NCBI GenBank assembly: GCA_040768905.1
Contig: JAXGMA010000001.1
Location: 1,299,806-1,363,805 of the forward strand
DNA: 64,000 nucleotides
DNA from: Christensenellales bacterium
Lineage (GTDB): Bacteria > Bacillota > Clostridia > Christensenellales > SZUA-584
Reading direction: 5' to 3'
Position numbers and translations under genes: made by a program. Under the pieces are notes generated by a model. It was given only the letters and a program-made list of their open reading frames with translations, made no database searches and had not been told where the DNA came from. Shown here one piece after another: positions 11,515 through 47,853 of this stretch. Numbering within the stretch: the first letter of the stretch is position 1; each line of letters opens with the position of its first letter.

Positions 11515-11525
11515 GGAGAAGACAG

Positions 11526-18689: not shown

Positions 18690-18703
18690 GAATATTCTCC
18701 TTT

Positions 18704-20020: not shown

Positions 20021-20049
20021 TTTTTGTCCTCCTGTATTAAACTTTTTAA

Positions 20050-20778: not shown

Positions 20779-20779
20779 C

Positions 20780-21739: not shown

Positions 21740-21753
21740 ATTCTATTTACACC

Positions 21754-22602: not shown

Positions 22603-23903
22603 TCAAAAAGCCTCCTAAATCTTTTTTCGTAACATTCCTTAAGCGCCGGCCGAAAATCAGGGTGTGCGATTTCTATCAGCGCCTTTGCACGCTCCCTAAG
22701 CGTTCTTCCCTTCAGCTTTGCCACACCGTATTCCGTGACGATATAATTGACATCATTGCGGTTTGTTGTCACGGCTGCCCCTTCATCCAGCTGGGCGACG
22801 ATCTTTGAGATCCTGCCACCTGCTGCCGTCGACGGCATCGCGATGATGCTCTTGCCGCCTTTAGACATATTGGCGCCGCGCACAAAATCTACCTGGCCTC
22901 CCACAGCGCTGATCTGCTTTAATCCCACGCTCTCCGAGCACACCTGGCCGTATAAGTCGACCTGCACGCATGAGTTGATGGAGATCATGTTGTCGTTTTT
23001 CCGGATCACATACGGATCGTTGGTGTACTCAACGGGCGCCATGTAGACCATGGGGTTGTCATGAACAAAATCGTAGAGCCTAGGAGTCCCCATCAGGAAC
23101 GACACAACGATCTTGCCCTGATGCAGCGTTTTCCTGCTGCAGTTGATCACGCCTGAATCCACAAGCTCCACCACACCGTCGGAGATCATCTCCGAGTGTA
23201 TGCCAAGGTCTTTTTTGTCTTTGAGCGCATGCAGCACCGCATCGGGAAGTGACCCGATCCCAAGCTGCAGCGTATCGCCGTCAGCGATCAGCGCCGCGCA
23301 GTTATCGCCGATTTTTTGTTCAACCTCCGTGATGGACGGCGGCTTGAGCTCGATAAGCGGCGCGTTATGCTCCACAAACGCATGTATCTCGCTGACATGC
23401 AGGAAGCTGTCGCCCAAAGTGCGCGGCATGCTGCTGTTGACCTGCGCGATCACCGTTTTTGCGTGTTTTGCGGCTGTCATCGTATAGTCCACAGAAACGC
23501 CGAGGCTGCAATAGCCAGAATGATCGGGCGGGCTTACCTGTATCAAAGCCACATCGACCGGCAGCGAACCATTGGTGAACAGCGAGGGTATCTCCGAAAA
23601 ATAACACGGTGTATAGTCTGCCCTGCCTTCGAAACAGGCTTCGCGCGCCGGCCCGCCTACAAACAGTGAATTGTGGCGGAAGTACGGCTCCATGCCGCTC
23701 GCGCAGTAATCTCCTTTACCCATGAATACCATGTGCACGATCTCGACATCCCGGTAAGCCTCGCGGTTTTTTACCATTGCGTCGATCAAAAAGCTCGGTT
23801 CGCCCACCGCATGGCCGATAACCACACGGTTTCCGCTTTTGATCAGCGACACAGCATCCTGTGCATTCATTTTTCTTTTATCGTACCAGTTCTTCCATTC
23901 CAT
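22599..23903 (-). CDS. acetyl-CoA hydrolase/transferase family, 4-hydroxybutyrate CoA-transferase-like
   Basis: 434 aa with SGNRVVIGHAVGEP at the N-terminus and GGQVDF in the C-terminal half. Adjacent to abfD, as in known 4-hydroxybutyrate clusters. Confidence 0.8.
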   Translation of the reverse strand: MEWKNWYDKRKMNAQDAVSLIKSGNRVVIGHAVGEPSFLIDAMVKNREAYRDVEIVHMVFMGKGDYCASGMEPYFRHNSLFVGGPAREACFEGRADYTPCYFSEIPSLFTNGSLPVDVALIQVSPPDHSGYCSLGVSVDYTMTAAKHAKTVIAQVNSSMPRTLGDSFLHVSEIHAFVEHNAPLIELKPPSITEVEQKIGDNCAALIADGDTLQLGIGSLPDAVLHALKDKKDLGIHSEMISDGVVELVDSGVINCSRKTLHQGKIVVSFLMGTPRLYDFVHDNPMVYMAPVEYTNDPYVIRKNDNMISINSCVQVDLYGQVCSESVGLKQISAVGGQVDFVRGANMSKGGKSIIAMPSTAAGGRISKIVAQLDEGAAVTTNRNDVNYIVTEYGVAKLKGRTLRERAKALIEIAHPDFRPALKECYEKRFRRLFE

Positions 23904-23908
23904 ATCGT

Positions 23909-25354
23909 TTATTCCTTTATATGCGCGATGTCTTTGGCGAGTTTCTTTTTGGCTTCGATATTGCCCTGACGCGCAATCATGATCCTCTGGGCCTGCGGCG
24001 AGCCCGCGCCGTGCAGCGATTCCGTACGGTAACCGACCGCGGCTGTGCCAAGCGTAATGTTCTCAATCAGCCGAAGTATGCGCATGCGGTTTTCGGTCGG
24101 CACGCTGTCAACACCACGCAGATATTTATCTATGTATGGCTTTAATTCCGGGTTGCGGAAATCCTTCTCGGACGGCATCGTCACCATCAGCCCGCCTGCG
24201 ATATCTTCGGCCAGCCGCGACATCTCATACGGGAATCTTGTGACGTTCTGTTTGCACACGTTGGCCAGCAGCAGATCAATCTCATAGTTGCCGGCGCATG
24301 TTTTGCACCCTTCACAGCTGCTTGCTATCGAGCAGGCATACATCGTTTCATTCAAATGGGTCATCTCTATGAGTTTGTCTTTGATATGGCTTGCCTTGGG
24401 GACGCCGTTGTAATCGGCGGCCAGCGCGGCTGCACCGATCAGCACATCGCCGACGCCTGTTTTGCATGCGTAGCTCGTGCGGTGGTATCCCGCAAACCTT
24501 TCCACGAGCGTGCCCACAAACTCTGTTTCGCCGTCCATGAATATACGCTCATTGGGTACAAACACATCTTCGAATATGACGAGCGTTTCATGGCCGCCAA
24601 AGCTTCTGTTGCCAAGATCGATGTCCGGATTTTCCTCGAGTTTTCTCAAGTCACAGCTTTGCCTGCCATAGATCATGAAAATCCCTTTTGTATCGCTGGG
24701 AACCGCAAAAGTGACAGCATAGTCTTTGTCTTCAGGGCGCATGGATATGGTCGGCATCACGAGCACTTCATGAGAGTTGATCATGCCGGTCTGATGGGCT
24801 TTGGCACCGCGCACCACGATACCGTCTTCTCTGCGTTCCACAACTCTTAAATACATGTCGGGATCAGCTTGTCCAGAAGGTGAAAGCCCTCTGTTGCCCT
24901 TTGGATCCGTCATGGCGCCATCTACAACGAGGTCGTTTTTCTGGATGTATTTCCAGTATTCGATAAAACGTTCGTGATAGTTTGTGCCTTTGGCGTCATC
25001 GATTTCTTTTGTTGATGTGTACACCGCATTACCTGCGTCCATACCCACACAACGTTGAAAGCATGCCGATGTTTTCTGTCCCAGCAGCCTGCACATCTTC
25101 ACCTTTTTCACCAGGTCTTCTGTGCTTTGGTGAAGGTGCGTAAACCTGTTGATCTTCTCGCCCGTCAGATTGGATACGGTCGTCATGATGTCGGCATATT
25201 CTTCCTGCTGTGCAAGCGCATATGTCATCGTCACCGAATTGAGCGAAGGCTTGATCATCGGGTGTTCCGTAGGCTCTTTCACCTGTTCGCCCAGAAGATA
25301 CACTTTTAAGTCAAGTTTCTTTAAGCTCTCTACGTACTCTTTTGCAGTTTTCAT
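23909..25354 (-). CDS. abfD: 4-hydroxybutyryl-CoA dehydratase / vinylacetyl-CoA delta-isomerase
   Basis: 481 aa. The CFQRCVGMD cluster-ligand motif and overall HpaB-like length match AbfD. Confidence 0.85.
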   Translation of the reverse strand: MKTAKEYVESLKKLDLKVYLLGEQVKEPTEHPMIKPSLNSVTMTYALAQQEEYADIMTTVSNLTGEKINRFTHLHQSTEDLVKKVKMCRLLGQKTSACFQRCVGMDAGNAVYTSTKEIDDAKGTNYHERFIEYWKYIQKNDLVVDGAMTDPKGNRGLSPSGQADPDMYLRVVERREDGIVVRGAKAHQTGMINSHEVLVMPTISMRPEDKDYAVTFAVPSDTKGIFMIYGRQSCDLRKLEENPDIDLGNRSFGGHETLVIFEDVFVPNERIFMDGETEFVGTLVERFAGYHRTSYACKTGVGDVLIGAAALAADYNGVPKASHIKDKLIEMTHLNETMYACSIASSCEGCKTCAGNYEIDLLLANVCKQNVTRFPYEMSRLAEDIAGGLMVTMPSEKDFRNPELKPYIDKYLRGVDSVPTENRMRILRLIENITLGTAAVGYRTESLHGAGSPQAQRIMIARQGNIEAKKKLAKDIAHIKE

Positions 25355-25373
25355 TAAAATTTCACTCCCTTAA

Positions 25374-26495
25374 TTAATATCTGTTCCCATATATCTTGCG
25401 CGCGTGCTGAATCGTGAAAGGAATGTGGCTGTTCACAAGCAGCCTCTGCTGATTGTCTATCACGCTTTGCGAGAAGAGTTCGATTTCTTCCTGTTTCATG
25501 CCGTATTCGCGCAGCCTTTTGATGGGCTGCAGCTTTAATAGCATATCGAACAAGCCGTCAAACGGTGTGTCATACTCAATACCAAGCCTCTTTAAGCTTT
25601 TTTCCACCGTACTGGCCAGAGCTGTCAGTTTCTCAGTCGGCCTCTCGGTGAAATAAAGGTTGAAGACTTCAGAAAAGAACTGACAGTTCGCTTCGCCGTG
25701 AGGCACATGGTAGTTGCCTCCGAGCGGATACGCAAGCGCGTGCACCGAGCCGACGCCCGCGTTGCCAAAAGCGATGCCTGCCATACAGCTGGCTGTAAGA
25801 AAAGCGCCGGCAAGATCTTTTTTGGCCGACTCCCCCTGCTCAATCATTTGCGCAAATCCATTGAGTATCATCTCGCAGGCCGCAAGGCTGAAAGTCTCTG
25901 TAAATGCATTGGCTTTGGGAGAAATGTAGGATTCTGAAGCGTGTACCAGCGCGTCTATCGCACTGAACACGAAGAACTTCTGAGGAAGCCCTTCCACAAG
26001 CGCTGGGATCATTACCGCGTGGTCTGCAAACAACGCATCGTCCCCGAGCCCCATCTTTGTGCCCTTGGACACGATGTGCACGATGCTCAGGTTGGTCATC
26101 TCGCTGCCCGTGCCGCACGTTGTCGGCACGATGATCAGTTCCTTCTCTTTGACCGACGCTGTTTCTTTCGCAAACAGGCTGCGGGTCGGCGCACTTTTCA
26201 GCACAAGTATCTTGGCAATATCGATGACGCTGCCGCCGCCGACCGCCACAATGCGCCTGCACCCGAAATCTTTTGCCTTTTCGGCGATACCGTCTATCAT
26301 TTCATCGTCCGGCTCGCCCATGCCGAATTCGTCTCGCAGCAGCACCTTACACTCAAGGCCAAGTTTGCTTATGAATGTGTCATGCAAAAACGCCTCGGTA
26401 AAAATAAGGTCGTCACCACCAAGGCCGAATTCCTCTGCAAACGCACCGAACTTGTCAAACGCATGTATCTGCGGTTTGACGATCAATTGTCTCAT
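25374..26495 (-). CDS. iron-containing alcohol dehydrogenase (4-hydroxybutyrate dehydrogenase-like)
   Basis: About 373 aa with GGGSVIDIAK and metal-binding histidines (HASESY, GSVHALAYPLGGNYHVPHG). The ATG at 26495 has a GGAGGG RBS. Confidence 0.8.
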   Translation of the reverse strand: MRQLIVKPQIHAFDKFGAFAEEFGLGGDDLIFTEAFLHDTFISKLGLECKVLLRDEFGMGEPDDEMIDGIAEKAKDFGCRRIVAVGGGSVIDIAKILVLKSAPTRSLFAKETASVKEKELIIVPTTCGTGSEMTNLSIVHIVSKGTKMGLGDDALFADHAVMIPALVEGLPQKFFVFSAIDALVHASESYISPKANAFTETFSLAACEMILNGFAQMIEQGESAKKDLAGAFLTASCMAGIAFGNAGVGSVHALAYPLGGNYHVPHGEANCQFFSEVFNLYFTERPTEKLTALASTVEKSLKRLGIEYDTPFDGLFDMLLKLQPIKRLREYGMKQEEIELFSQSVIDNQQRLLVNSHIPFTIQHARKIYGNRY

Positions 26496-26566
26496 TTTTC
26501 TACCCTCCATATGGTTTAGCCGCTTGGCACTGATACTGTCAAACGTGCTTTTATTTTAGATAGCGA

Positions 26567-26953: not shown

Positions 26954-28798
26954 CTACGCGATCCCGAGCATATCAATCAGCTCTTTTTTGGGGATGCCGT
27001 ATTCATCCCAGCCGCGCACTTCATAGTACTCATCGATCATGCCGTCTATATCCGCAATGTTCTCTGCCGCTCCGCCGGTGCCTCTTCTTTTGCGCATCTT
27101 GGGCGGCAGTATATCGTCTTTTCTCGACTGGCCGTCACGCACCTGGTACATCCTCTTTAAGTTGAAGATCCTCTCGCCGCATGCAAGCAGCTCCTCATGT
27201 GTCATATCCCAGCCCGTCACCATATTGATCCACTTGACAAAGGTGCTGAAGGTTTCCCCTTCCATACCGAAGATGATGAACTTACAGCATGTCAGCGAAT
27301 CGCACAGCGCCTGGAAATCCTGCGACACTTTGATGTATTCAGGCTTTCCCTCGGTCGAGAACCTGTCCATGTCCATGCTCTTGTAAAAACCGAACCCGGG
27401 GTAATTCCCTCCCACTTCAAAATCGTGTGTAAACGAGTTTAAGTGGCATGCACCGCGTGTGCTTGTGGCGTACTGAAGCCCGGTGCTGTCGGCTGCGCGC
27501 GGGTCATGCGCGGGAAACTCAAGGCCTCTGACGTGCACCGCGAACTCGGGTGCCAATCCGCCGATTTGCTCTGCTGCTCTTTTTGTCCCCTCGGCAAGGA
27601 TATCGCCGATGCCTTCACGGAAGGCCACCATTTTGATGATGCCGATGAGCGCATCAGCATCGCCCCATTTGGCTTCTATACCGCCCAGCATCTCTTTGGT
27701 GATCACGTTGTTCTCATACGCTTCCATGACAAACGAGACCACGCTGCCTGCGGAGATCGTATCAAGGCCGTAGCGGTTGCACAGCTCGTTGCCGTAGGAT
27801 ATCGCCGCAAGATCGTTGATCATGCAGTTGGCGCCCAACATGCCAAGCGTTTCATATTCGGGCCCGCCGCCTTTGACGCATTTGTACTTGCCTTCTTTGA
27901 TCTCTATCGTCCTGCCGCAGCCGATGGCGCATTGAGCGCAGTTATATGGCTTCACAAGTATTGTTTTGGCAAGCGTTTGTCCGGTGATGGGCTCTACGTC
28001 AAAATTGCCGGCCGTCCAGTTTTTGACGGGCAGGTCTCCCGACGATTCGACCGTTTCCATGCCGCAGGCCGTTCCGTAATTCCTCAGGTAGCTTTTTGTG
28101 TTGTCGTTTATTTTGGGCGCCCATTCTTTGACGCTTTGCTTTAACGCATCCGGCTCGGCAACCTCCGGCGCCATGTTTCCGTTAAGGCTGATGGCTTTAA
28201 GGTTCTTAGAGCCCATCACTGCACCAAGGCCGCAGCGCGCCGTCGTTCTTCCCTCATAACCGTCGTTCATGATGGCTGCGATGCGCACCAGTTTCTCGCC
28301 GGCCGGGCCGATGCTGGCCGTCACCGTCTTTTTGCCGTGCGCTTCTTTCAATATGTCATCGACTTCATAGGTGTCTTTTCCCCAAAGATGCGATGCGTCG
28401 AGAATTTCCGCTTTTCCTTCTTCAATGTTGATATACACCGGTTTTTCTGCTTTGCCTTTGACCACGATGCCGTCATAGCCTGCACGCTTCAATTTGTATC
28501 CCCATGAGCCGCCGGAATTGCCTTCTCCGAAAGAACCCGTGAGCGGGGAACGCGTGATCGCCTGATGCCTTCCGAAATTCGGGACATTTGTGCCGACTAG
28601 AGGACCTGTCATAAAGATAAGCAGGTTATCAGGGCCAAGAGGGTCTGTGTTGCTGTCCGTTTCGTCATATAATATCTTCGCGCCAAGGCCGCTTCCGCCA
28701 AGGTATTTCCTGAGTATCTCCTCAGGGATCACCTCGTCTTTCATGCTGCCGCTCGAAAGGTCCACCCTTAAGATTTTTCCCGTATAGCCATATGGCAT
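26954..28798 (-). CDS. aor: aldehyde:ferredoxin oxidoreductase (tungstopterin AOR family), copy 1
   Basis: About 614 aa. N-terminal YGYTGKILRVDLS, the AOR_N domain, and CAQCAIGC [4Fe-4S]/pterin-region cysteines. AGGAGG lies 8 nt before the ATG at 28798. Confidence 0.9.
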   Translation of the reverse strand: MPYGYTGKILRVDLSSGSMKDEVIPEEILRKYLGGSGLGAKILYDETDSNTDPLGPDNLLIFMTGPLVGTNVPNFGRHQAITRSPLTGSFGEGNSGGSWGYKLKRAGYDGIVVKGKAEKPVYINIEEGKAEILDASHLWGKDTYEVDDILKEAHGKKTVTASIGPAGEKLVRIAAIMNDGYEGRTTARCGLGAVMGSKNLKAISLNGNMAPEVAEPDALKQSVKEWAPKINDNTKSYLRNYGTACGMETVESSGDLPVKNWTAGNFDVEPITGQTLAKTILVKPYNCAQCAIGCGRTIEIKEGKYKCVKGGGPEYETLGMLGANCMINDLAAISYGNELCNRYGLDTISAGSVVSFVMEAYENNVITKEMLGGIEAKWGDADALIGIIKMVAFREGIGDILAEGTKRAAEQIGGLAPEFAVHVRGLEFPAHDPRAADSTGLQYATSTRGACHLNSFTHDFEVGGNYPGFGFYKSMDMDRFSTEGKPEYIKVSQDFQALCDSLTCCKFIIFGMEGETFSTFVKWINMVTGWDMTHEELLACGERIFNLKRMYQVRDGQSRKDDILPPKMRKRRGTGGAAENIADIDGMIDEYYEVRGWDEYGIPKKELIDMLGIA

Positions 28799-28821
28799 TT
28801 TTTTGTCCTCCTTCTTCTTTT

Positions 28822-29100
28822 TCATCCTCCGGCAATGGGAGGCAGTATTTTTAAAACCGTATCGTTTTTTATCATGGAGTCGGGCTTTACGATCGCGTTA
28901 TCCACAACGAAGATCGCGTTTAAGATAGATCCGCGTATCAGTTGAGCGCCCCTGAGCTTTTCTTCAAGCCCCTCTTCGCTCTCAAGCAGCAAGCCGGCCG
29001 CTTCTGCAACTGTAACCGCGTCCTTATCGCAATGTAATTCGACCTCTCTTTTTCCGACGATATCGCTGAGCATCGCGCCTAATATAACCTTGATCTGCAT
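28822..29100 (-). CDS. MoaD/ThiS-family beta-grasp protein with C-terminal Gly-Gly
   Basis: 92 aa ending ...ILPPIAGG. Size and the diglycine terminus are typical of sulfur-carrier proteins. Lies immediately upstream of AOR copy 1. Confidence 0.7.
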   Translation of the reverse strand: MQIKVILGAMLSDIVGKREVELHCDKDAVTVAEAAGLLLESEEGLEEKLRGAQLIRGSILNAIFVVDNAIVKPDSMIKNDTVLKILPPIAGG

Positions 29101-29111
29101 GTACCTTTTTC

Positions 29112-30134
29112 CTATATCTCAATAACGACTTTGTAATGGCTGCCGTCTTTATAGCTGAAAGCCATGGCTTCTTTCACCTCATCCAACGGGAAAACATTTG
29201 TCACAAGGCTAAGCAGCTCACTGTTGATGGTGCCTTTTTCCATTGCTTCGATCGCAGCGTAAAAATTCACCTGCGAATGAATCCTGACACCGCGGATATT
29301 GATTTCTTTTAATACAATTTCTATCACGTTCATCAGCACCGGTTTCGACGGAAGCCCCACAAAAACGATGCTGCCGCCGATTTTGCATGCTTTGGATGAT
29401 GCCAGTATGGACGGTTCTAAGCCTGTCACTTCAAAAACAACATCGAACCCTTTATTTTTAGTGATCTTTAGCGCTTTATCCATATAATCCGGTTCAAAGG
29501 GATTCACCGCTTTGAACCCAAGTTTATTGATAGTACTGAGCCTGTATTCATTGACCTCGCTGATGACCACATCGGCCGCGCCGGCCATTCTTGCAACCAA
29601 TGCAATAAGGACGCCAATGGGGCCGCCGCCGATCACCAGCGCCCTGTCCCCAACTTTTAAGCCGCTGTTGCGTACGTCATGCATAGCGACTGCCAAAGGT
29701 TCGGTCATCGCGGCAAGTTTCAAATCTATACTTTTGGGTATTTTATAGACTTTATTCAGCGGCACTTTTACATACTCGGCAAAACTTCCAAATTCATGAA
29801 CGCCGAGCAGCTTTAACTGTGCACAGATATTGTCTCTTCCGGATAAACACGCTTCGCAGCTGCCGCAGCTGTGATAAGGCTGGATCACGACGTTGTCTCC
29901 GGGTTTCAGATCCGTGTCTTTATCTGTTTTGACATCTTCAATGATCCCGGAAATCTCGTGTCCCAGAATCAAAGGCAACACAGCAGTCGGATGATGGCCG
30001 TTGAAAACATGAAGATCCGTTCCGCATATTCCGGCGTATTTAACTTTTACCAGTGCTTCGCCGTGAGTTATTTTTGGTATTTCGATGTCTTTCAGGCTCA
30101 TTTCGCCCCATTTTTCAATATATGCTGCTTTCAT
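29112..30134 (-). CDS. zinc-dependent alcohol/polyol dehydrogenase (MDR family)
   Basis: 340 aa with GICGTDLH, GHEISG, structural-zinc cysteines (CGSCEACLSGRDNIC) and GGGPIG. Confidence 0.85.
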   Translation of the reverse strand: MKAAYIEKWGEMSLKDIEIPKITHGEALVKVKYAGICGTDLHVFNGHHPTAVLPLILGHEISGIIEDVKTDKDTDLKPGDNVVIQPYHSCGSCEACLSGRDNICAQLKLLGVHEFGSFAEYVKVPLNKVYKIPKSIDLKLAAMTEPLAVAMHDVRNSGLKVGDRALVIGGGPIGVLIALVARMAGAADVVISEVNEYRLSTINKLGFKAVNPFEPDYMDKALKITKNKGFDVVFEVTGLEPSILASSKACKIGGSIVFVGLPSKPVLMNVIEIVLKEINIRGVRIHSQVNFYAAIEAMEKGTINSELLSLVTNVFPLDEVKEAMAFSYKDGSHYKVVIEI

Positions 30135-30190
30135 CGTATCGTGACCTCCAAGTGTTTATTTGACTGCAATCGAACAGCTGTTCACATCTT

Positions 30191-30889
30191 TTAGCGCCAA
30201 TCCTCCATGCTGTACAGCTTCAAACCATCCAAATTGATACCGTAAAAAGACGAAAGGTGCGAAACGATGTGTTTCAATACTTTTCCTGTGTTTCTCTCAA
30301 AAAGTGCTTCAACGATCAGATCATGATGTTCTATCTTTTTGAGGCTGTCTTGAACATCCAGATATTTTGTTGCCTGCAAAAGCTGAATTTTCAGGTACAG
30401 CTCTTTTTGCATTTTGAGCAGAAAATCATTATTACCGATCTTCGTCAGCTCTATATGAAAATCACAATCTTTTTTGATCCTGTTGAACATATCGCCCTGC
30501 ATGGCTGCCTCTTTGCACTCTTCTGCAATATTTCTTAGATTTAGAAAATCCGCATTGCTGCCATACTGGACGGCGTACTGGGCGGCCAGACAATCCATGT
30601 TGATTCTGAGCAGGCCAAGATCTTTGATTTCTTTATCCGAAAATGAGATGACTTCTGCATGCCTGTTGGGATAAATATTGACAAGCCCCTGCATGGACAG
30701 CTTTCTCAGAGCTTCACGGATCGGTGTTCTGCTGACACCCAGCTGCAGCGCTATTTTCTCCTCCTGCAGTTTCTCTCCGCATTGAATTTGCTTATCTAAA
30801 ATCATGCTTTTGATATACTCATGCACCAAGACCGACAAATTCTTTCCGACAAACTTTGGATCGCTCTGAATCTCTTTTAGTCCTTCCAT
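30191..30889 (-). CDS. GntR-family transcriptional regulator, FadR/FCD subfamily
   Basis: 232 aa with an N-terminal winged HTH (EEKIALQLGVSRTPIREALRKL) and a helical FCD-type C-terminal domain. Confidence 0.85.
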   Translation of the reverse strand: MEGLKEIQSDPKFVGKNLSVLVHEYIKSMILDKQIQCGEKLQEEKIALQLGVSRTPIREALRKLSMQGLVNIYPNRHAEVISFSDKEIKDLGLLRINMDCLAAQYAVQYGSNADFLNLRNIAEECKEAAMQGDMFNRIKKDCDFHIELTKIGNNDFLLKMQKELYLKIQLLQATKYLDVQDSLKKIEHHDLIVEALFERNTGKVLKHIVSHLSSFYGINLDGLKLYSMEDWR

Positions 30890-30953
30890 GCCTATAACCT
30901 CATCTCTGCAGTTAAGCTTGATCCTTCGCTTAGCCGCATATTATTTTCTCTGC

Positions 30954-31882
30954 TCAATCCTGAACAAACCCTGACCCGCCAATGCTGACTCTGAGCCCCG
31001 CGTTTTCTGCAAGCTTTTTGCATTGCTGCGCTTTTTCGGTGCTTTGTTCCGGCCAGTCATGCATCTCGTACATGCTGCCTGTCATCTCATACTTTGATGA
31101 TCCGATCTGATGGAAAGGCAGTATATGCATCTCGCTCACGCCGTCAAGCCCCGCAGCAAACCGCACAATTTTCCCGAACTCATTCTCATCATCGTTCACA
31201 TCGGTGATCAGCGGCACGCGTATGATCATCTTCGCACCCATACCGGCCAGCCTTTGCGCGTTTTCAAGTATTAAACTGTTGTCAACGCCCGTCCACTTCA
31301 TGTGGAGCTTTGCATCTACCGCCTTGATGTCATAAAGAAAAAGATCAGTATACGCGGCAATTTCCTTTAAATTTTCCCATTTGGCATAGCCGCACGTCTC
31401 TACCGCTGTGTGTATCCTTTCATGCCGCAAGCGCTTGAGCAGTTCAACACAGAATTCTTTATGCTGCGTCGGTTCGCCTCCGCTCAGCGTGACCCCTCCG
31501 CCAGATGTCCTGAACACGACCTCATCCTTCATGACTTCCTTGAAGAGCGTGCTCACTGTATACAGCTTGCCTGAAGGGTTCCGCGCATTGAAATAGCATT
31601 CTTCAACGCATTTGAAGCAGTGTGTGCACTTGTCAAAGTCCGTCAGTACATTTGCGTCTGCGTCTGCATGAATGGCGCCTTCCGGACAAACGGGTATACA
31701 CGCCATACATTTGCTGCAGTTGTATTCATTGAACATCAGCCGGGGCTTGTTGGGTATGGCCTCCGGATTCTGACACCACTTGCACCTAAGCGGGCATCCT
31801 AAAAAAAAACTATGGTGCGCAAACCCGGCCCGTCATGCAATGAACACCTCTGGATATTTGAAACATATACATTATACTCCAT
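30954..31882 (-). CDS. glycyl-radical-enzyme activating enzyme (radical SAM), interrupted by a 1-nt frameshift in a homopolymer
   Basis: The ATG at 31882 (2 nt after the GRE stop) gives MEYNVYVSNIQRCSLHDGPGLRTIVFF*, stopping at 31799. One frame over, the reading continues (L)GCPLRCKWCQNPE... (CX3CX2C motif) into the 260-aa tracked ORF, which has ferredoxin-like CxxCxxCxxxCP clusters and GGEP. The break is the A9 run at 31801-31809. Confidence 0.85.
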
Positions 31883-31884
31883 TT

Positions 31885-34230
31885 TTACAAACCTTTCTCA
31901 AATCTTTTTATGATGTTATCCTGCTGCACGGGAGCCATCGCTATAAAGTAAGCGGAAAGCCCCCCCATTCTCACTCTTAAATCCTGATGCTTCTCCGGAT
32001 TGACTTTGGCATCCTTTAGATCTTCCGCATTGGTGCTGGTGATCGTCAGGATCTGCCCGCCGAGATTACAGAAAGATTTTATAAGATTTTTGAGCCTGTC
32101 AAGCCCGGCTTCATCTGCATAATCATTGGAGTTCTCGGCAATATCGACAGGCGTTCCGCAGTAATACTTGATCAAAGAAGGCTTGCTGATGGTCTTGAAT
32201 ATCGCGGTTGCCCCGTTCACATCTGCGCCTGCTACCGGCGAATAGTTGGGTGCGAGCGGTCCGCCGAACTCACGTCCGTCTGCCGATGCGCCGATATCAC
32301 GGCCAAGCACAGCATAATTTTCAAATGTGCCGATCCCGACAGGGAACATCATGACATTTTGCTTCCTGCGCCAGATCTCGACACGGTCTTCAAAATCTTT
32401 AAGCAGCCGAACCGCTAAATCATCCACGTAGTCATCATCATTCCCGAATTTGGGAACCATGTTTTTGGCCATTGCGCGCAGGCGCTCATGCCCTTTCCAG
32501 CCGTCTTTGAGGGCCTGTACAATCTCTGACATCTTGACCTTTTTTTCTTCAAAGACCAGCTTTTTGATCACAGCCAGAGAATCGACCGTATTGGCAAGGC
32601 CGGTCACAAGGATCAGATGGAAGATGTATTTGGCGCCGTCTTGCGAAATATCCCTGCCTTTTTCGATGCAGTTGTCGATCATTGTTGAGAACAACGGGTC
32701 CGGCGCGATCATAAACGACAAACCGAAATTTTCGAGCCTGCGTTTGCACTGAAAATCGATCGCTTCGAACATTTGCTTCTTATAGGCGGCATAGAACATC
32801 TCAAAATTGTCAAACTCACAAGGATCGCCCGTGTCAAGCCCTTCACGCACGTTGTTGTTGAGCGATACGCCCCTGTGGAGCACCCATTCCAGACAGCGCA
32901 GGTTCATCACATGCGCATAGCTGAAATGGCTCTTTCCGGCAACAAGCGTCTCCCAGCAGCCATCATTGCTGTAATCACGCGCGTCCTCGACCGGTATGCC
33001 GATATCCACGAAACCCGGAATGATGGTGTCGTCATTATATATCATCGGTTCGCCCTGGCCGTACCTTAACGCATTGGCGATGGTTTTATAGAATGCATCA
33101 GGGGTATCCTTATGGACCCTTGCTGCCAGCGTCGGCATAAGCAGCGACATTTCGTGCATCAGATCGATAAAGAGGTAAGAAACCTCGTTCGTCGCATCTT
33201 TTCCGTCTCTACCGAGACCGCCGACGATACAGTTCATCAGCCAGTCATTGCCCGACTGCCCGTAGTTAAAGTTGGCTTCGCTGTCATCGGGTTCGTTTTC
33301 CTGCCATGTGAGCCCTCTTTGCTCAAAGCCGCCTGTGATCGTCTTTGCAAGGGCTTCGTCGGGCACGAGCCCCTGGGAAAATAAACCGAAGCTGTAGTGG
33401 TTCTCAGCCTGTTTGGTATCGATGATGATGCGCTCGTTGCATTTGATGAGAAAACTGCCGATAAGATCAAGCGCACGCTCTTTCGTGATGCGTTTTTCAT
33501 CAAGGTCTTTTTTGTAATAAGGATAAATATACTGGTCTGCCCTGCCGAGAGGTACATATTCGCCGCCGCTGTTGACCATACAGTAAATAAACCAGAAGGA
33601 TTGCAGCGCTTCATGCAGGGTACGGGCAGGCTTTTGCGGCACATGAGAACATGCCTCATAAATCTCCAGCAATTCCCTCTTGCGAATGACATCTTCACAG
33701 GCAAGAGACTGTTTGAGTGCTTCCTGTGCATGCCTTTTTGCAAAATCCACAACGCCGTCAAGCGCAATGATCATCGCCCGGTATTCAATAAGCGCCGCTT
33801 CATCCGGATGGGATGCGCGCATCTGGCGTTCTATCGCCGCGCCTATCTCCTGTTTTAATCCATCGATGCCGATCTCGATGACCTTATCGTACTGCGGCGG
33901 ATGGTGCCCCCATATCGAGGCTTCGTTCAGCTGGTACTTCGCCGCTTCTTCGCCCTCTTCTTTGGTATAATAAATGGGCATCACCGTTCCCCAGCCGACG
34001 CTGTTCTGGTTGGGGTTGCCGACAATAAGCTCATCCGGTTTGATGATCGCCGGCAGGTGATTTCCGATATAGGCCTGCGCCATCGCCTTGCGCACAACAA
34101 GCGGTTCGCTTACAAGATGCTCGTTTCCGTCGAGAATATTGGTATCGACAAAATGCCACACGCCTTTGTCTTTATATTCGACGTTGAACAACCTATCTTT
34201 TAATTTTTCAAGCCTGCTTGTCAGTTCCAT
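31885..34230 (-). CDS. glycyl radical enzyme, PFL2/dehydratase-like but divergent
   Basis: 781 aa. DELIVGN N-terminal motif, Cys-loop NDGCWE (GCxE type), FGNDDDYVD, GASADGR, and C-terminal radical-domain motif RVRMGGLSAYF in place of the usual RVAGYSAxF. RBS AAGGAGG. Confidence 0.9.
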   Translation of the reverse strand: MELTSRLEKLKDRLFNVEYKDKGVWHFVDTNILDGNEHLVSEPLVVRKAMAQAYIGNHLPAIIKPDELIVGNPNQNSVGWGTVMPIYYTKEEGEEAAKYQLNEASIWGHHPPQYDKVIEIGIDGLKQEIGAAIERQMRASHPDEAALIEYRAMIIALDGVVDFAKRHAQEALKQSLACEDVIRKRELLEIYEACSHVPQKPARTLHEALQSFWFIYCMVNSGGEYVPLGRADQYIYPYYKKDLDEKRITKERALDLIGSFLIKCNERIIIDTKQAENHYSFGLFSQGLVPDEALAKTITGGFEQRGLTWQENEPDDSEANFNYGQSGNDWLMNCIVGGLGRDGKDATNEVSYLFIDLMHEMSLLMPTLAARVHKDTPDAFYKTIANALRYGQGEPMIYNDDTIIPGFVDIGIPVEDARDYSNDGCWETLVAGKSHFSYAHVMNLRCLEWVLHRGVSLNNNVREGLDTGDPCEFDNFEMFYAAYKKQMFEAIDFQCKRRLENFGLSFMIAPDPLFSTMIDNCIEKGRDISQDGAKYIFHLILVTGLANTVDSLAVIKKLVFEEKKVKMSEIVQALKDGWKGHERLRAMAKNMVPKFGNDDDYVDDLAVRLLKDFEDRVEIWRRKQNVMMFPVGIGTFENYAVLGRDIGASADGREFGGPLAPNYSPVAGADVNGATAIFKTISKPSLIKYYCGTPVDIAENSNDYADEAGLDRLKNLIKSFCNLGGQILTITSTNAEDLKDAKVNPEKHQDLRVRMGGLSAYFIAMAPVQQDNIIKRFEKGL

Positions 34231-34251
34231 TTATATTACCTCCTTAGCCGG

Positions 34252-35232
34252 TCATTTTATAATGATGTTTCTTGAGCTCCTGTCTGCCGTGATAAAGATC
34301 GCGATCAGCAGCAGCAATCCGAAAACGATCTGCTGATAAAATGAATCGAGCCCGACAGCTGAGATGCCATTCTGGATGATCGCCACAACCGCGCAGCCGA
34401 CCGTCATCCAGAGCGCGTTGCCTCTGCCGCCTGACAGCGATACACCGCCCAATACAGCTGCGGCAATGCACATCAGGGTGAGCGGGTCTCCGACGTACGG
34501 CGAAGCGCTTTTAAGTTTTGCGACCAATAGAATGCCCATCATACTGCTCAAAAACGCGCTCACCACATAGGCGAACATTTTTGTCTTGCGGATCGGGACA
34601 CCCGCCATGCGCGCCGCTTTTTCATTTGCGCCGATAGCATATATGTATTTCCCGAGGCTCGTTTTTTTCAGCAGGATATAGGCGATTATAACGACCGCTA
34701 CACCGATGAGGAAGTAAACAGTGAATATATCGATGACCGTGATCTTGGTAAAATCAAAGATTTCCCCTTGTGCACGCGGCACCGATACGGATCCGGAACC
34801 GGAAACGACAAGCGCAAGGCTGTTCCATATGCTCATGGTCCCGAGTGTCGCGATAAACGAGGGTATCTTCACAAACGTAAACAAAAATCCGTTTAACAGC
34901 CCCGCCAGTATGCCGAACAGCAATGGCAGCAGGATGCCGCCTGCGCCGCCTAAAGCTCCGAGCAGCGTGGCGCACAGCACTGCAGAGAACGAGCAGACGC
35001 CGCCCAAAGATAAGTCAATGGAGCCGATAATCAAAACAAACGTGATGCCTGCGCCCATAACCAGAAAAGTCGTCATGTCGGTGAGCAGGTTCTTGATGTT
35101 GAGCGGCCGCAAAAAATTCGGATTGATCGAAGTGATCACAACGACAAGCACCACGATGACAAGCAAGCTGATGTATCTTGTGATGTTGGCTCCGCTCGTG
35201 TTGATTTTTAATCTGTTCATTAAAGGTTTCAT
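34252..35232 (-). CDS. ABC sugar transporter permease (RbsC/CUT2 type)
   Basis: 326 aa, multi-pass hydrophobic protein with the branched-chain/ribose-type permease pattern (GSIDLSLGG). Confidence 0.85.
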   Translation of the reverse strand: MKPLMNRLKINTSGANITRYISLLVIVVLVVVITSINPNFLRPLNIKNLLTDMTTFLVMGAGITFVLIIGSIDLSLGGVCSFSAVLCATLLGALGGAGGILLPLLFGILAGLLNGFLFTFVKIPSFIATLGTMSIWNSLALVVSGSGSVSVPRAQGEIFDFTKITVIDIFTVYFLIGVAVVIIAYILLKKTSLGKYIYAIGANEKAARMAGVPIRKTKMFAYVVSAFLSSMMGILLVAKLKSASPYVGDPLTLMCIAAAVLGGVSLSGGRGNALWMTVGCAVVAIIQNGISAVGLDSFYQQIVFGLLLLIAIFITADRSSRNIIIK

Positions 35233-35244
35233 GTTTGTCTCCCC

Positions 35245-36771
35245 CTACATCATCAATTTAACGATATCGACTTGTTCGGGCTTGTTTTCGCGCCCCGCTT
35301 CAAACTCTCCGGTAATAAGGCCGTCTTTCATGGTCAGTACCCGGTTTCCAATCCCGATGCATTCGGCCAATGTGTCTCCCAAAAGTATGACCGCAAGGCC
35401 TGTTTTTGTGGCTTCTCTGATGATCGAATATATTTCTTCCTTCGCGCCGACATCAACGCCTCTTGTGGGGTGGTTGAGTATCAACACCTTGGCTTCAGAA
35501 GCCAGAACTCTCGAAAAAACGACCTTCTGCGCATTGCCGCCGCTCAGTGACTCGACAAGCTCTTGCTCACTGCTGCATTTGATATTTAATTTGCCGATCC
35601 ACTCCTTGGACTTTTTGAGCTGCTTGCCTTTTGAGATGAAAAGGCCGGAGCTGACGTTCTTGTAATTGGAAAGGCAGATGTTTTCGTAAACAGGCAGGAT
35701 GCCGAGTATACCTTCTTCCCGCCGTTCCTTGGGTATAGAAAGTATGCCTTTTCTCAATGCCGCGGACGGCTCTGCGTTGGATATTTTTTTGCCGAAAAGC
35801 TCGATGACGCCCGAGGTTGCTTTATCGTCACCTGCGATGACTTCGCAGACCTCCTCTTTGCCGGAACCCACAACGCCCGCGATACTGATGACTTCGCCCT
35901 CATGCAGGTCAAAGCTCACATCACGGAAAGCGCCCTTTTTACTCAAGTTTTTCAAACTGAGCACCACATTGTCTTTGGGGTCAGTCTGTTTGTCGATCTT
36001 GTAGTATTCGCCTGTTCCGCTCCTGCCGACCATCAGCTCGTAGATCTTATCTTCGTTGGCCTCTGATGTCTTGATTTCACCGACGTTTTGTCCGTCCTTG
36101 AAGACATAAATACGATCCGTAATCTCAAGAACCTCGTCAAGACGGTGCGAGACAAAGATGACGGCATTGCCCTCTTCTTTAAGTTTTTTCATCTCGGTAT
36201 ACAACTGCTTTATTTCTGCGTCGCCGAGCACAGATGTCGGCTCGTCAAGCAATATGATCGCCCTGTCTGATTTTGAGCTTCTTGCCGTGTTGAGCACCTT
36301 GGCGATCTCCACCATCTGCCTTTTTGCAAAAGTCAGCTCTCCCGCTTTCTTTTCCGGCGGGATGTCCTCGTTATCGATTTCTTTTAATATGTCGGCGGCC
36401 GCTGTGTACATTTTGCGCCAGTTGATAAAGCCGAATGTCTTAAACTCCTTTTCCTTGCCGAAGAAGATATTCTGGCCGACTGTCAGATTGGAAACGATAG
36501 ATTGTTCCTGAAAAACCATGCCTACGCCCAGCGCATTGGCTTCCCGCGGGTTCCGCGGCGCATACTTTTTGCCGCGTATCAGCATTTCGCCTTTATCAGC
36601 GCGTTCCACACCGTTGATGATCCTGAACAGCGTCGTCTTGCCGGCGCCGTTCTCGCCGACCAACCCAAGGATCTCGCCTTCATATATGTTGAGGTTAACG
36701 CTCTTTAACGCCTGCACCCCCGGATATGTTTTGTTTATGTCTTTAGCTTCAAATAACAGCTTCTTTTCCAT
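35245..36771 (-). CDS. ABC sugar transporter ATP-binding protein (duplicated ATPase, RbsA type)
   Basis: 508 aa with Walker A GENGAGKTT, LSGGNAQK signature-like motifs and two nucleotide-binding halves. Confidence 0.9.
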   Translation of the reverse strand: MEKKLLFEAKDINKTYPGVQALKSVNLNIYEGEILGLVGENGAGKTTLFRIINGVERADKGEMLIRGKKYAPRNPREANALGVGMVFQEQSIVSNLTVGQNIFFGKEKEFKTFGFINWRKMYTAAADILKEIDNEDIPPEKKAGELTFAKRQMVEIAKVLNTARSSKSDRAIILLDEPTSVLGDAEIKQLYTEMKKLKEEGNAVIFVSHRLDEVLEITDRIYVFKDGQNVGEIKTSEANEDKIYELMVGRSGTGEYYKIDKQTDPKDNVVLSLKNLSKKGAFRDVSFDLHEGEVISIAGVVGSGKEEVCEVIAGDDKATSGVIELFGKKISNAEPSAALRKGILSIPKERREEGILGILPVYENICLSNYKNVSSGLFISKGKQLKKSKEWIGKLNIKCSSEQELVESLSGGNAQKVVFSRVLASEAKVLILNHPTRGVDVGAKEEIYSIIREATKTGLAVILLGDTLAECIGIGNRVLTMKDGLITGEFEAGRENKPEQVDIVKLMM

Positions 36772-36801
36772 AAATACACCGCTCCTTTGTTTCTGGGTTG
36801 A

Positions 36802-37818
36802 TTATTTGTTGACAAGTTTACGGCCTCTGGTCACCGAAACCGCGACAGCGGCCAGTATGATGGCTCCCTGTATTCCCGTTTGTATCGTGGCATCGACGCC
36901 TGACATGATAAGGCCGTTTTGCAGCACGGTGACGATGGCAGCGCCCAACAGCGTATTGACCACGCCGCCTTTGCCGCCGCTCAGCGCAGTGCCGCCGACA
37001 ACGACCGCAGTCAAAGCCGGAAACAGCTGGTTTTGCCCGGAGAGTATCGTTCCCCTCCCTAATTTGCCCGCACTGAGAACGCCCGCAACACCGACGCACA
37101 GCCCGGCCAGCACAAATGATATGATCTTGACCTTGTCGATGCTGATGCCGGAGACTTTGGGTATCGTCTCGTTATCGCCGATAGAATAGATATACCTGCC
37201 GTAAGCCGTGTAGCGCTGTATGACGAACATGATGAGGAAAACAACTATGCCGACCAAAAACGTATACGGTACCATGCCGGCGATGTCTCCGTTCACGAGC
37301 GTCTTTAAGAAATCATATTGAAGGAATGCGGGTATGCCCTGATAGGAGAGCATCCCGGCGCCGGCCGCCACGCTTGACATCGCCAGGGTGACCATGAAAG
37401 AAGGCAGCTTGGCTTTGACGTGTATATAACCGTTTATAAAGCCGATCGCGCCGCAGCACAGTACAGAAAGAATCAGGCCGAAAATCCCTAGGTCAAGGGG
37501 GAACTTATCGCTGATTACAAAGATGCTGATGATAGAAGCGGAAAACCCCATCACGCCCTCAAGTGAAAGGTCAATACTGCCCATGATGACGACAAATGTC
37601 AAACCGAGAGAGAGAATTAGCGGTATCGCCAGTTGGTTGAGTAATGCCCTTATGTTCATGGGCGCCAAAAAGGATGGCTGTGCGATCATAAAGACCACGA
37701 TGAGCAAAAAGAGAATGATGACCGGTGCGATCCTGATAATCTTCGCCTTGGTGTTCTGCGCTTTGACCTGTTGCGCGAACTCTTCACCCACGGTAAGCTT
37801 TTTATTGTTTTCTGCCAT
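36802..37818 (-). CDS. ABC sugar transporter permease (RbsC/CUT2 type)
   Basis: 338 aa hydrophobic protein with GSIDLSLEG. Second permease of the same system. Confidence 0.85.
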   Translation of the reverse strand: MAENNKKLTVGEEFAQQVKAQNTKAKIIRIAPVIILFLLIVVFMIAQPSFLAPMNIRALLNQLAIPLILSLGLTFVVIMGSIDLSLEGVMGFSASIISIFVISDKFPLDLGIFGLILSVLCCGAIGFINGYIHVKAKLPSFMVTLAMSSVAAGAGMLSYQGIPAFLQYDFLKTLVNGDIAGMVPYTFLVGIVVFLIMFVIQRYTAYGRYIYSIGDNETIPKVSGISIDKVKIISFVLAGLCVGVAGVLSAGKLGRGTILSGQNQLFPALTAVVVGGTALSGGKGGVVNTLLGAAIVTVLQNGLIMSGVDATIQTGIQGAIILAAVAVSVTRGRKLVNK

Positions 37819-37994
37819 AGTGTTTCCTCCCGGTTAATGATATAAGTTAAATAACACCGACAACTATATAGACCATTCCAATTATATCATACGCCCCGAG
37901 ATGTTACGCCTCGAGGCGTTAGTTTTCAAGCTTTTTATAAGTACAGTCCTCTATTTTTTTAGGGGCATTTTTTATGATAATGCCTGATTTTTAT

Positions 37995-38020
37995 GAAGGG
38001 AAGCGCAAGCGCTTCCCTTC
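37995..38020 (-). other. perfect 12-bp hairpin just downstream of the binding-protein gene (RNA stabiliser or partial terminator)
   Basis: GAAGGGAAGCGC-AA-GCGCTTCCCTTC is a perfect inverted repeat with no strong U-tract. An extended -10-like TGATATAAT follows on the minus strand before the permease gene. Confidence 0.5.
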
Positions 38021-38035
38021 ACATTTTCTAAAGTA

Positions 38036-39196
38036 TTAGTCTTGGATCAACGGGATATCCCACGGTGCATAGATCATGCTGGAAATGTCCGTGAAGTCGA
38101 ACGACGGCGTGCTAGCTAAGAATTCGTCAACTGTGTCAGCCGTAACAAGAACACCGGATGTCAGGAAGCTTCTCTGATCAAGCGGAAGCTCTGAAGGCAC
38201 GATGTTTCCTGCCCATGCCTGATACAGGTATGCGAGGCCCATGCCGCCCTGTTTGTAAGGATCGCTGAACACTGACGCTGTCATCTTTCCGGCTTTGATA
38301 GCCTGAACAGCGCCGTCGATGCCGTCAACGCCAACGACCTTGATCTTGCCGATGAGGTCTTTTGCCTCAAGCAGCTCTACGACCGAGAGAGCCATACTGT
38401 CATTCGCGCACCAGATGCCGTCGATATCGCTGTACTTCGCCAGCCATGTCTCAGCAATTGTGTAAGCCTGCTGCGGATCCCAGTCAGCCGGCAGATCTTC
38501 GAGCAGCTCTACGCCCGGATATTCCGCCAAAGCTTTCTTCAAGCCTTCGAAACGGTTGATCGCCGCGCTGTTGGCAAGCATGCCCTGGATCGCAAGGACC
38601 TTGCCTTCGCCCGGTGTGTCGAAACTCTCAAACATGGCTTTTGAGATGTTGTAACCGGAGCCGTTGTCATCGAGAGTCTGGTGGAACACATAGTATTCGT
38701 AGTCTTTGATCTTGAGCTCATCAGCTGTGCTCCATGTTGTGCTCCAATATACCTTATTTTCTTCGCAGTATTCCGCGATCGGGACAGCATTCGGAGCATT
38801 GTTAGGATCAACAGTGACTATGCAGTTCGGTGCATAAGACGCGATAAAGTCTCTAACAACCGTCAGCTGCTTTTCATCGCTTCCATCGCTGACCAACATG
38901 ACAACTTCACAGTCTTGTCCCTGACTCTTGAGCCAATCTGCAAACATCTGGCCGCCTTCCTGCAGCTGGATGTAATACGGATTTGTCAAAGATCTGATCG
39001 CCATGCCGAGGTAGAGTTTTTCTCCCGCAGCGGGTGCTGGTGCATCAGGCTCTTGAGCATCAGGCTCTTGAGCAGCCGGCTTTTCAACAGCAGGGGCCTC
39101 CGTGTCAGGTGTTTGGGTTTGCGGCTGGCAACCTGCCATCACGATGCTCAGCGCGAAAACCAGAGCGAGAATCATTACTACTGCTTTTTTCAACAT
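38036..39196 (-). CDS. ABC sugar/polyol-binding lipoprotein (periplasmic-binding-protein type I)
   Basis: Signal peptide plus lipobox (LSIVMAGC), a Pro/Glu/Ala-rich linker, then a PBP-type fold. The ATG at 39196 has AGGAGG 5 nt upstream. Confidence 0.85.
   Translation of the reverse strand: MLKKAVVMILALVFALSIVMAGCQPQTQTPDTEAPAVEKPAAQEPDAQEPDAPAPAAGEKLYLGMAIRSLTNPYYIQLQEGGQMFADWLKSQGQDCEVVMLVSDGSDEKQLTVVRDFIASYAPNCIVTVDPNNAPNAVPIAEYCEENKVYWSTTWSTADELKIKDYEYYVFHQTLDDNGSGYNISKAMFESFDTPGEGKVLAIQGMLANSAAINRFEGLKKALAEYPGVELLEDLPADWDPQQAYTIAETWLAKYSDIDGIWCANDSMALSVVELLEAKDLIGKIKVVGVDGIDGAVQAIKAGKMTASVFSDPYKQGGMGLAYLYQAWAGNIVPSELPLDQRSFLTSGVLVTADTVDEFLASTPSFDFTDISSMIYAPWDIPLIQD
39042..39071. repeat. 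perfect 15-bp tandem duplication inside the lipoprotein linker
   Basis: GCATCAGGCTCTTGA occurs twice in tandem. It encodes the repeated AQEPD motif of the linker. Confidence 0.9.
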
Positions 39197-39388
39197 ACTT
39201 TCCTCCTTGTTTATTATCACCGAAGGGCTGGGTATATAATAATACTGCGCACCTTCAGAATGAAAAACGGTTATTGATAGCGATTATTTTCTGTTTGCTT
39301 TGTTTCCCCTTAAGACAGTTTTGAAATAACTGGTGCGTTCTGTCACATAATGGTATTCTATCATATTTCTTTGTACTTTATATGCGTT

Positions 39389-39417
39389 ATTGTATACAAT
39401 CATTGGCTGCAAGTCAA
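39389..39417 (-). promoter_or_regulatory. promoter of the ABC/GRE cluster (TTGACT-17 nt-TACAAT) overlapped by the palindrome ATTGTATACAAT
   Basis: On the minus strand, TTGACT is at 39417-39412 and TACAAT at 39394-39389. The perfect 12-bp palindrome at 39389-39400 covers the -10 element. Confidence 0.5.
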
Positions 39418-39495
39418 GCCTGTTTTTTGATTGTTTGCAATTTCATACGGTTTATCTAATGGCTCTTTCTTATTGAGGGCTGGCTTGGCCCATTA

Positions 39496-47699: not shown

Positions 47700-47853
47700 T
47701 TTTGCACCTCTTATCAACATTCTGAGGACTGTTTACATCCTCATTCACTATATGTACAGCTGTTAAGAAGCGTGTCGGGCGGAAGAAAAACGCAGAAAAA
47801 GAATAAAGCCACGTTAAAAAACGGGCTTGCCATAAAAACACCGGCATATTTTT

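Follow-up and report, generated by a model that had tools for sequence, protein, structure and literature searches.

The 64,000 nucleotides (nt) of Christensenellales genome analyzed here (GenBank assembly GCA_040768905.1, contig JAXGMA010000001.1, positions 1,299,806 to 1,363,805; hereafter the window) carry on the minus strand a gene for the activating enzyme (activase) of a glycyl radical enzyme (GRE), and its reading frame is broken by a deficit of one nucleotide in a run of nine T. Is this gene misread, dead, switched off, or expressed in spite of the break? An earlier reading of the locus, made from the sequence alone, had offered three options, i.e., (a) a homopolymer miscall, (b) a genuine inactivating or phase-variable mutation, and (c) expression through transcriptional slippage or -1 ribosomal frameshifting. 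The comparisons described below found the same T9 in two strains, with both parts of the gene kept by purifying selection, each in its own frame. The explanation that we tentatively favor, and to which we assign close to an even chance, is a fixed one-base deficit that would be rescued by transcriptional slippage, much as in Shigella flexneri mxiE.

The frame break and the protein it interrupts

The A9 at 31801-31809 of the + strand is T9 on the coding (minus) strand and U9 in the mRNA. The activase starts at an ATG at 31882 (minus strand), 2 nt past the TAA of an upstream GRE of 781 amino acids (aa), and its first open reading frame (ORF1, MEYNVYVSNIQRCSLHDGPGLRTIVFF) is closed by a TAG at 31801-31799 that consists of the last T of the run plus AG. 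Past T9, frame -1 goes on with LGCPLRCKWCQNPE, and its translation, ...FFLGCPLRCKWCQNPE..., runs to a stop at 30954. This -1-frame body contains the radical S-adenosylmethionine (SAM) cluster motif, two ferredoxin-like Cys clusters, and the SAM-binding barrel. The run, the ORF1 stop at TAG, and the activase sequence given in the sequence-only reading were all confirmed on the minus strand. Its claim that one extra T would restore a CX3CX2C activase of 309 aa also held: insertion of one T in the run gave a 309-aa protein by translation, and this repaired protein matched TIGR02494, the GRE-activase model, with 345 bits (cutoff, 174) over model positions 1-292 of 293. The 260-aa ORF alone meets the model only from position 44 and, since it lacks the Cys motif, would not be a functional activase by itself. 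ATG, GTG, and TTG codons were sought in the -1 frame 5' of the Cys motif and none was present; therefore, a functional enzyme needs a frame change, and a two-piece enzyme made by re-initiation was ruled out on the same ground.

Since DGPGLR lies in frame 0 and CPLRCKWC in frame -1, with the T9 run and TAG between them, the two motifs cannot share one polypeptide unless the message is recoded, and DGPGxR and CX3CX2C were found together only after addition of one nucleotide or -1 recoding. The neighboring gene is the one expected for this family, a GRE with PFL-like and Gly_radical domains directly upstream of the activase ATG. By its translated sequence, the protein belongs with the GRE activases, and only after repair. 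It has the same CX3CX2C and DGPGxR motifs as known GRE activating enzymes (TIGR02494; PFL-AE, CutD, HypD-AE, HpsH) and is also like them in its ferredoxin-like double-cluster insert, its GGGVTLSGGEP SAM-binding motif, and its position right after the GRE. Unlike them, the window gene is split over two frames, and the repaired activase passed none of the substrate-specific equivalog models.

An under-called T10, i.e., a sequencing or assembly error, would fit the fact that homopolymers of 9-10 nt are a classic context for indel errors, and the source is a single 2.47-Mb contig, suggesting long reads. To examine the state of the run, we relied on independent copies of the locus. A protein search returned only one cluster above 64% identity to the window activase, and this held two truncated calls of 250 aa. 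One was the window's own protein, present on the 2.47-Mb NCBI contig and on a 1.7-kb Logan contig (L165, read set SRR27558881) that was 100% identical to the window and likewise had T9. The other was on a JGI metagenome contig (L001; sample 3300032927, contig Ga0351853_1436), in which T9 and TAG were identical to those of the window. L001 showed 96.8% nucleotide identity to the window over 6,057 bp, with 184 substitutions, and single nucleotide polymorphisms (SNPs) occurred 27-35 nt upstream and ~80 nt downstream of the run; thus, L001 represents a different strain. Since the same T9 is found in this different-strain assembly, whose N10 scaffold gap suggests a short-read scaffolder, and again in L165, a sequencing error is unlikely. 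The GRE of L001 is split, which was considered as a sign of an error-prone assembly and rejected, the split being merely the N10 gap. A related NCBI assembly (L167; GCA_040769305.1, JAXGLH010000015.1) is indel-ridden and has T8 at the run, which could speak for error at this site. It was rejected as a third strain, since its 176 gap openings over 12 kb fall in every kind of sequence context, shatter all of its gene calls, and make its T8 call meaningless. P0172, considered as a further strain, was an unrelated aldehyde:ferredoxin oxidoreductase (AFOR) locus.

The window itself is otherwise clean. Long ORFs make up 94% of it, and each suspicious adjacent pair proved to be two distinct complete domains, so that no other split gene was found that would indicate homopolymer errors. 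In addition, several 8-nt runs inside coding sequences (CDS) of the window stay in frame. Taken with the copies in L001 and L165, these observations leave option (a), the miscall, very improbable.

On composition, a T9 run is not surprising, since chance predicts 2.75 T or A runs of 9 nt in 64 kb and at least one was present in 82 of 100 shuffles; its context is what is non-random. The genome has a GC content of 50.6%, long runs are avoided in its CDS, and T9 is the sole run of at least 9 nt in the 64 kb. Sense-strand T runs reach T7 at most in the 48 intact CDS of the window, and the run at the same codon position likewise reaches T7 at most in 133 intact homologues. Under the codon usage of the genome, V-F-F-L would be written with T10 in only ~0.5-1.3% of encodings. 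Finally, T9 coincides exactly with the sole frame break among the ~59 genes of the window.

Selection on the broken gene

A gene that had died before the two strains separated would be expected to have accumulated damage. Comparison of the window with L001 gave 21 synonymous and 3 nonsynonymous differences in the repaired gene (pS 0.108, pN 0.004, omega 0.038), and neutrality was rejected (binomial p = 5.5e-12). Constraint was evident on both sides of the run. ORF1 showed 3 synonymous and 0 nonsynonymous differences, and the downstream part showed a synonymous:nonsynonymous ratio of 18:3 in the -1 frame, as against 1:19 and 3:18 in the wrong frames. Omega of the intact neighbors was 0.046 for the GRE, 0.064 for the GntR regulator, 0.067 for the transporter ATPase, and 0.141 for the permease (0.065 overall), and that of the activase was no different (Fisher p = 0.58). 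Had the gene been neutral since the strain split, ~79 nonsynonymous differences and ~4 new stops would be expected, whereas 3 and 0 were observed; the chance of no new stop under neutrality is P = 0.012, and, at the 95% upper bound, the gene evolved neutrally for ~3% (0.03) of the divergence time. No additional stops or indels were found in the activase between the window and L001. The reading as a simple, dead pseudogene is therefore rejected on these comparative data, since omega is 0.038, further damage is absent, and the neutral share is at most ~3%. Within the species, both gene parts are kept in their own frames, together with T9 and TAG, in two strains at 96.8% identity.

Two further possibilities were considered from the same alignment. 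A mismatch-free stretch of 113 nt spans the run, and this is ordinary, since 15 stretches of at least 100 nt occur in the 6 kb. Accordingly, extra synonymous conservation around the run was rejected, and recent spread of the T9 allele by recombination was unsupported, the run lying within normally diverged sequence.

Beyond the species, deep conservation of the frameshift might be read from truncated homologue calls (P0058, P0074, P0121-P0124, P0128, and P0131), and this failed on inspection of the DNA. P0074 and P0058 (58-61% identity), and then six more, had been called at ~260-280 aa from the same internal Met. Loci L162 (3805-4040), L163 (3690-4040), and L164 (3835-4040) are intact activases in which TTG or GTG starts near the GRE stop were missed by gene callers; therefore, truncated database entries of this family are not evidence of a frameshift. 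Among the truncated calls for which DNA was inspected, only L002 (P0074; 5783-5800; 2 samples) was truly frameshifted, at the same codon position and with T7 (GCT TTT TTT CAG GAT GCC). L166 (3070-3090), 95% identical to L002, is intact with T8 (GCT TTT TTT TCA GGA TGC, IAFFSGCP), and this intact T8 allele occurs on four contigs (L166 and three more, GCA_023428025.1 among them). Thus, the comparison of orthologous loci that had been proposed as a check recovered T9 in strain L001 and did not extend the frameshift beyond the species.

In a neighbor-joining tree, one clade (92.5% bootstrap) united the window lineage with L166/L002, P0058, and the intact P0002-P0005, and the window and L166 lineages were exclusive sisters in 0 of 200 bootstraps. 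Given this topology and the intact T8 run of L166, an ancestral frameshift common to the window lineage and L002 was rejected. Two lineages of one activase subfamily have thus gained long T runs independently, at the Phe-Phe codons that precede the cluster motif, and frame-breaking length alleles occur in each.

These data also bear on an incipient pseudogene, in which a T10 would have lost one T recently and independently in each strain, the pathway being dispensable or served by another activase. The run is an indel hotspot in the subfamily (T8 to T7 in L002), and a second activase could be encoded elsewhere, the view being limited to 64 kb of the genome. Moreover, in the T7/T8 pair (L002/L166) the activase showed an omega of 0.31, compared with 0.06-0.11 for its neighbors (Fisher p = 4e-4 vs the GRE). 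This value fits decay of the T7 allele and may be taken as a hint of it, but it stems mostly from a low pS, and pN is within the range of the neighbors. For the window species, the same mutation would be needed twice, each time within the last 3% or less of the divergence time, and the SNPs flanking the run make its spread by recombination unlikely. There is also no nonsynonymous excess, extra stop, or extra indel. We consider recent null alleles to be quite unlikely.

Phase variation is a further way to reconcile selection with a broken frame. Slipped-strand mispairing in replication would alternate T10 (ON) with T9 (OFF), selection would act on T10 cells, and the sampled consensus would happen to be OFF. 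This would account no less well than slippage for purifying selection on both halves despite the out-of-frame consensus. As is typical of contingency loci, the run is found near the beginning of the gene (codon 25-28), and in the L166/L002 lineage the same run occurs as T8 (in frame) and T7 (out of frame). Homopolymer switching of metabolic genes is documented, e.g., for Mycobacterium tuberculosis glpK and frd, and in contingency loci such as glpK a mononucleotide run near the 5' end of the CDS likewise sets the frame. Most known contingency loci use G/C runs, and A/T runs of 9-10 nt are less prone to switching than these. In the informative strains of the window species, neither an ON allele nor heterogeneity of run length was observed. 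Both informative strains and the Logan assembly have T9, and no intact T10 (309-aa) allele of the window species was found among ~15 billion proteins, in which only about three strains of it are known. Furthermore, RNA polymerase would be expected to slip on U9 anyway, so that the OFF state would be leaky. Of option (b), the simple pseudogene has to be abandoned, while the phase-variable half keeps some plausibility from the T8/T7 polymorphism of the L166/L002 lineage; we regard it as possible, though on the unlikely side.

Routes of expression

If the T9 gene is expressed as such, the frame could be changed by the ribosome or by RNA polymerase. The heptamer U_UUU_UUU (GU-U UUU UUU UAG) lies in the zero-frame register, and a -1 shift on it yields exactly F-F-L-G-C-P. 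The sequence-only reading was right about this slippery heptamer and its register, but not in placing an A after it: the U of UAG comes next, and A follows only after the whole run. A slowly decoded stop codon can promote P-site slippage, and the zero-frame UAG right after the shift site could thus raise such slippage somewhat. As stimulators of programmed -1 ribosomal frameshifting, we looked for a hairpin or pseudoknot 5-9 nt downstream or a Shine-Dalgarno-like sequence upstream. Downstream RNA folds (41-81 nt) had no extra stability over shuffles (z = -0.14, -0.74, and -0.39), nor did the upstream fold (61 nt; z = +0.87), and inspection revealed no Shine-Dalgarno-like element 10-14 nt upstream of the heptamer. 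An Rfam scan around the run returned nothing, even at E = 1, and hence no known frameshift element. No terminator-like hairpin was found 5' of the U run. An RNA structure that stimulates shifting, termination at the U run, and an Rfam element were thus all tried and none was found. In E. coli, slippery heptamers without a stimulator work at merely 2-10 times a background of ~0.05% (PMC4066793). Classical programmed frameshifting on U_UUU_UUU as the main route is, in our judgment, highly improbable.

In many bacteria, slippage by RNA polymerase becomes significant once a run reaches nine A or T, and no accessory signal is needed (PMC1088944). The T9 at the frame junction has this length. Shifted products can be abundant, e.g., ~50% for Thermus dnaX (A9; PMC1088944). 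Since unstimulated -1 shifting is inefficient and no stimulator was found, the transcriptional route is favored. Option (c) of the earlier reading is accordingly upheld for transcriptional slippage, by the 9-nt threshold, the strain-shared frameshift, and purifying selection, and not for -1 ribosomal frameshifting, given the absence of a structure or Rfam element and the low efficiency. A literature search for slippage or frameshifting in a GRE activase found no report.

We propose that T9 would be the true genomic state, fixed or at least predominant in the species, and would leave the activase one nucleotide short. RNA polymerase would slip on the 9-nt run and produce a share of mRNAs with U10 (or U7, U13). 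In these, ORF1 would be joined to the -1-frame body and the whole activase of 309 aa (...TIVFF-L-GCPLRCKWC...) encoded, and unslipped mRNAs would yield just a 27-aa peptide. Ribosomal -1 slippage on U_UUU_UUU beside UAG may contribute a little. Since the activase acts catalytically, a reduced amount would suffice, so that the frameshift would be tolerated and possibly even used to limit the activase in comparison with the GRE transcribed with it. Under transcriptional slippage, a ladder of junction peptides is predicted, i.e., TIVFLGCPLR, TIVFFLGCPLR, and TIVFFFLGCPLR from U7, U10, and U13, respectively, whereas -1 ribosomal frameshifting by itself would give only the FFL form from homogeneous U9. 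That slippage takes place here, how efficient it would be, and whether it benefits regulation are inferences from the locus.

This proposal has several precedents. In S. flexneri mxiE (mxiEa/mxiEb), a short ORF, a U run, and a longer functional ORF are fused by one untemplated nucleotide, which RNA polymerase inserts and on which the long, functional product depends (PMC1088944, PMC5009743). The geometry is the same here, with the functional domain downstream and a +1 nucleotide (-1 frame) needed to reach it. Differences are that mxiE is a plasmid-borne virulence regulator for which slippage was experimentally shown, whereas here the gene is a chromosomal radical-SAM activase of an uncultured-type anaerobe, known from the sequences of two strains. 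In Citrobacter rodentium tssM1 and Yersinia tssM3, a truncated-looking chromosomal gene is restored by slippage at a homopolymer just before the stop, with ~20% full-length product (PMC4256274). The tssM run is A11, and both TssM length variants are functional and their ratio matters, whereas here the run is T9 and the unshifted 27-aa peptide has no plausible function. Frameshifts of Buchnera and Blochmannia lie in conserved poly(A) or poly(T) runs of at least 9 nt in genes without signs of degradation and are rescued by slippage, with ~30% full-length transcripts (PMC3017870), and the evolutionary-rate argument made for them is the one applied here. Those endosymbiont genomes are extremely AT-rich, drift-dominated, and rich in long runs, unlike the present genome with its balanced GC and single case in 64 kb. 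As a recoding candidate, the activase would join the known mxiE, tssM, and endosymbiont-type cases of slippage rescue.

Several observations weigh against a fixed deficit rescued by slippage. No synonymous-site conservation or structure marks a selected recoding signal at the site. The closest relatives beyond the species (at most 64% identity) are intact and have interrupted runs, e.g., GTG TTC TTT CTC. At the same run, the length varies at the DNA level between T8 and T7 in the L166/L002 lineage, which shows that the site is a hotspot of replication slippage. The informative strains of the window species number two, i.e., the window and L001, and a short-read (Illumina) scaffolded assembly for L001 is suggested only by its N10 gap.

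A stronger form of the slippage reading would make the deficit a selected device, in which obligatory slippage on U9 throttles the activase relative to the co-transcribed, translationally coupled GRE. We hold this to be improbable. If true, the ratio of enzyme to activator would be kept low, or activation would respond to the conditions of transcription, and the case would be the first report of recoding in a radical-SAM or GRE-activating enzyme, in a free-living anaerobe of normal GC. In this GRE subfamily, the long T run at this codon position would then act as an evolvable 'dial' (T7, T8, T9).

The operon and what expression would mean

The features of the locus are collected in Table 1. 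The 2-nt spacing between the GRE stop and the activase ATG implies co-transcription and translational coupling. The operon, with its sugar-type ABC transporter, Zn-dependent alcohol dehydrogenase, AFOR, GntR regulator, cupin, and SDR (flanks 26954-40266), recurs in relatives, and the downstream alcohol dehydrogenase and AFOR suggest an aldehyde-forming GRE pathway.

Table 1. Features of the activase locus, with positions counted from the first nucleotide of the window
Feature	Position	Strand	Basis or remark
T9 homopolymer, slippage-prone, frame one base short	31801..31809	-	Sequence; same in L001 and Logan contig L165
ORF1, 27 codons + TAG, N-terminal activase segment MEYNVYVSNIQRCSLHDGPGLRTIVFF with conserved DGPGxR motif	31799..31882	-	
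-1-frame continuation, 282 codons, L-G-C-P-L-R-C-K-W-C to stop	30954..31802	-	Translation; Radical_SAM, Fer4, and TIGR02494 matches
CX3CX2C radical-SAM [4Fe-4S] motif (C-PLR-C-KW-C)	31773..31796	-	Reached only via a -1 shift or +1 nucleotide
Mechanical 260-aa ORF from conserved internal Met, without the Cys motif	30954..31736	-	TIGR02494 match from model position 44
Intact GRE, 781 aa, PFL2/dehydratase class, uncharacterized subfamily	31885..34230	-	Profile matches
GntR/FCD regulator directly downstream of the activase, syntenic in related loci	30191..30889	-	
Sugar-type ABC transporter upstream (binding protein, permease, ATPase, permease)	34252..39220	-	Operon context
Zn-dependent alcohol dehydrogenase, 92-aa ORF, and AFOR, downstream	26954..30134	-	Similar context in L162

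The partner GRE matched TIGR01774 (PFL2) with 404 bits, below the 678-bit cutoff. Its closest solved structures are CutC and the diol, glycerol, and hydroxyproline dehydratases, with the match confined to the C-terminal half, and it can be aligned to known GREs only over residues ~326 to 779. The variant radical motif RVR(M/L)GGLSAYF is conserved in L002, L166, L162, L164, and L163. Together with the operon, these features suggest a new dehydratase or eliminase that would form an aldehyde from a sugar-like substrate. The Gly-Gly of the glycyl-radical motif (LRVRMGGLSAYF) is coded by an in-frame G7 at 31960-31966 (minus strand, AGA ATG GGG GGG CTT), which is the same in L001; relatives code it as GGC GGN. 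The G7 is a second slippage-prone run of the operon and lies at the catalytic glycine of the GRE.

Elsewhere in the window, an SrpI-like encapsulin shell protein of type 2A (334 aa) is encoded directly upstream of a 514-aa class-V aminotransferase/cysteine desulfurase (45245-47720, minus strand); the latter has a long N-terminal extension and forms with the shell a classic encapsulin-plus-cargo pair. A cluster at 17427-26510 (minus strand) encodes an HpaB-family protein (481 aa), an acetyl-CoA hydrolase/transferase, thiolase-like proteins, an enoyl-CoA hydratase, and a 3-hydroxyacyl-CoA dehydrogenase. In anaerobes the HpaB family includes 4-hydroxybutyryl-CoA dehydratase, and the cluster is probably a fermentation module of the 4-hydroxybutyrate/butyrate type. 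Ordinary housekeeping genes occupy 143-13267 (plus strand), i.e., CarB, aspartate/ornithine carbamoyltransferase, and a near-complete shikimate operon that includes DAHP synthase, EPSP synthase, and a shikimate dehydrogenase-kinase fusion.

The evidence of selection, which rests on the sequences of two strains, sets this case above the usual annotation problem of a homopolymer frameshift. Whichever mechanism operates, between-strain dN/dS can tell a live frameshifted gene from a dead one. If the run is phase-variable, an anaerobic radical-enzyme pathway would be switched ON and OFF by it, and this, too, is uncommon. If the deficit is instead rescued by transcriptional slippage, the reading we favor, annotation pipelines that call the activase a pseudogene would wrongly score as inactive a whole GRE pathway, one with an uncharacterized dehydratase-class GRE and its own sugar-type transporter, alcohol dehydrogenase, and AFOR. 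The gene would also be a metabolic, non-mobile, non-endosymbiont addition to the few chromosomal genes that depend on transcriptional slippage, and it would suggest a simple means by which a bacterium may hold a catalytic activator at low amounts compared with the enzyme on which it acts.

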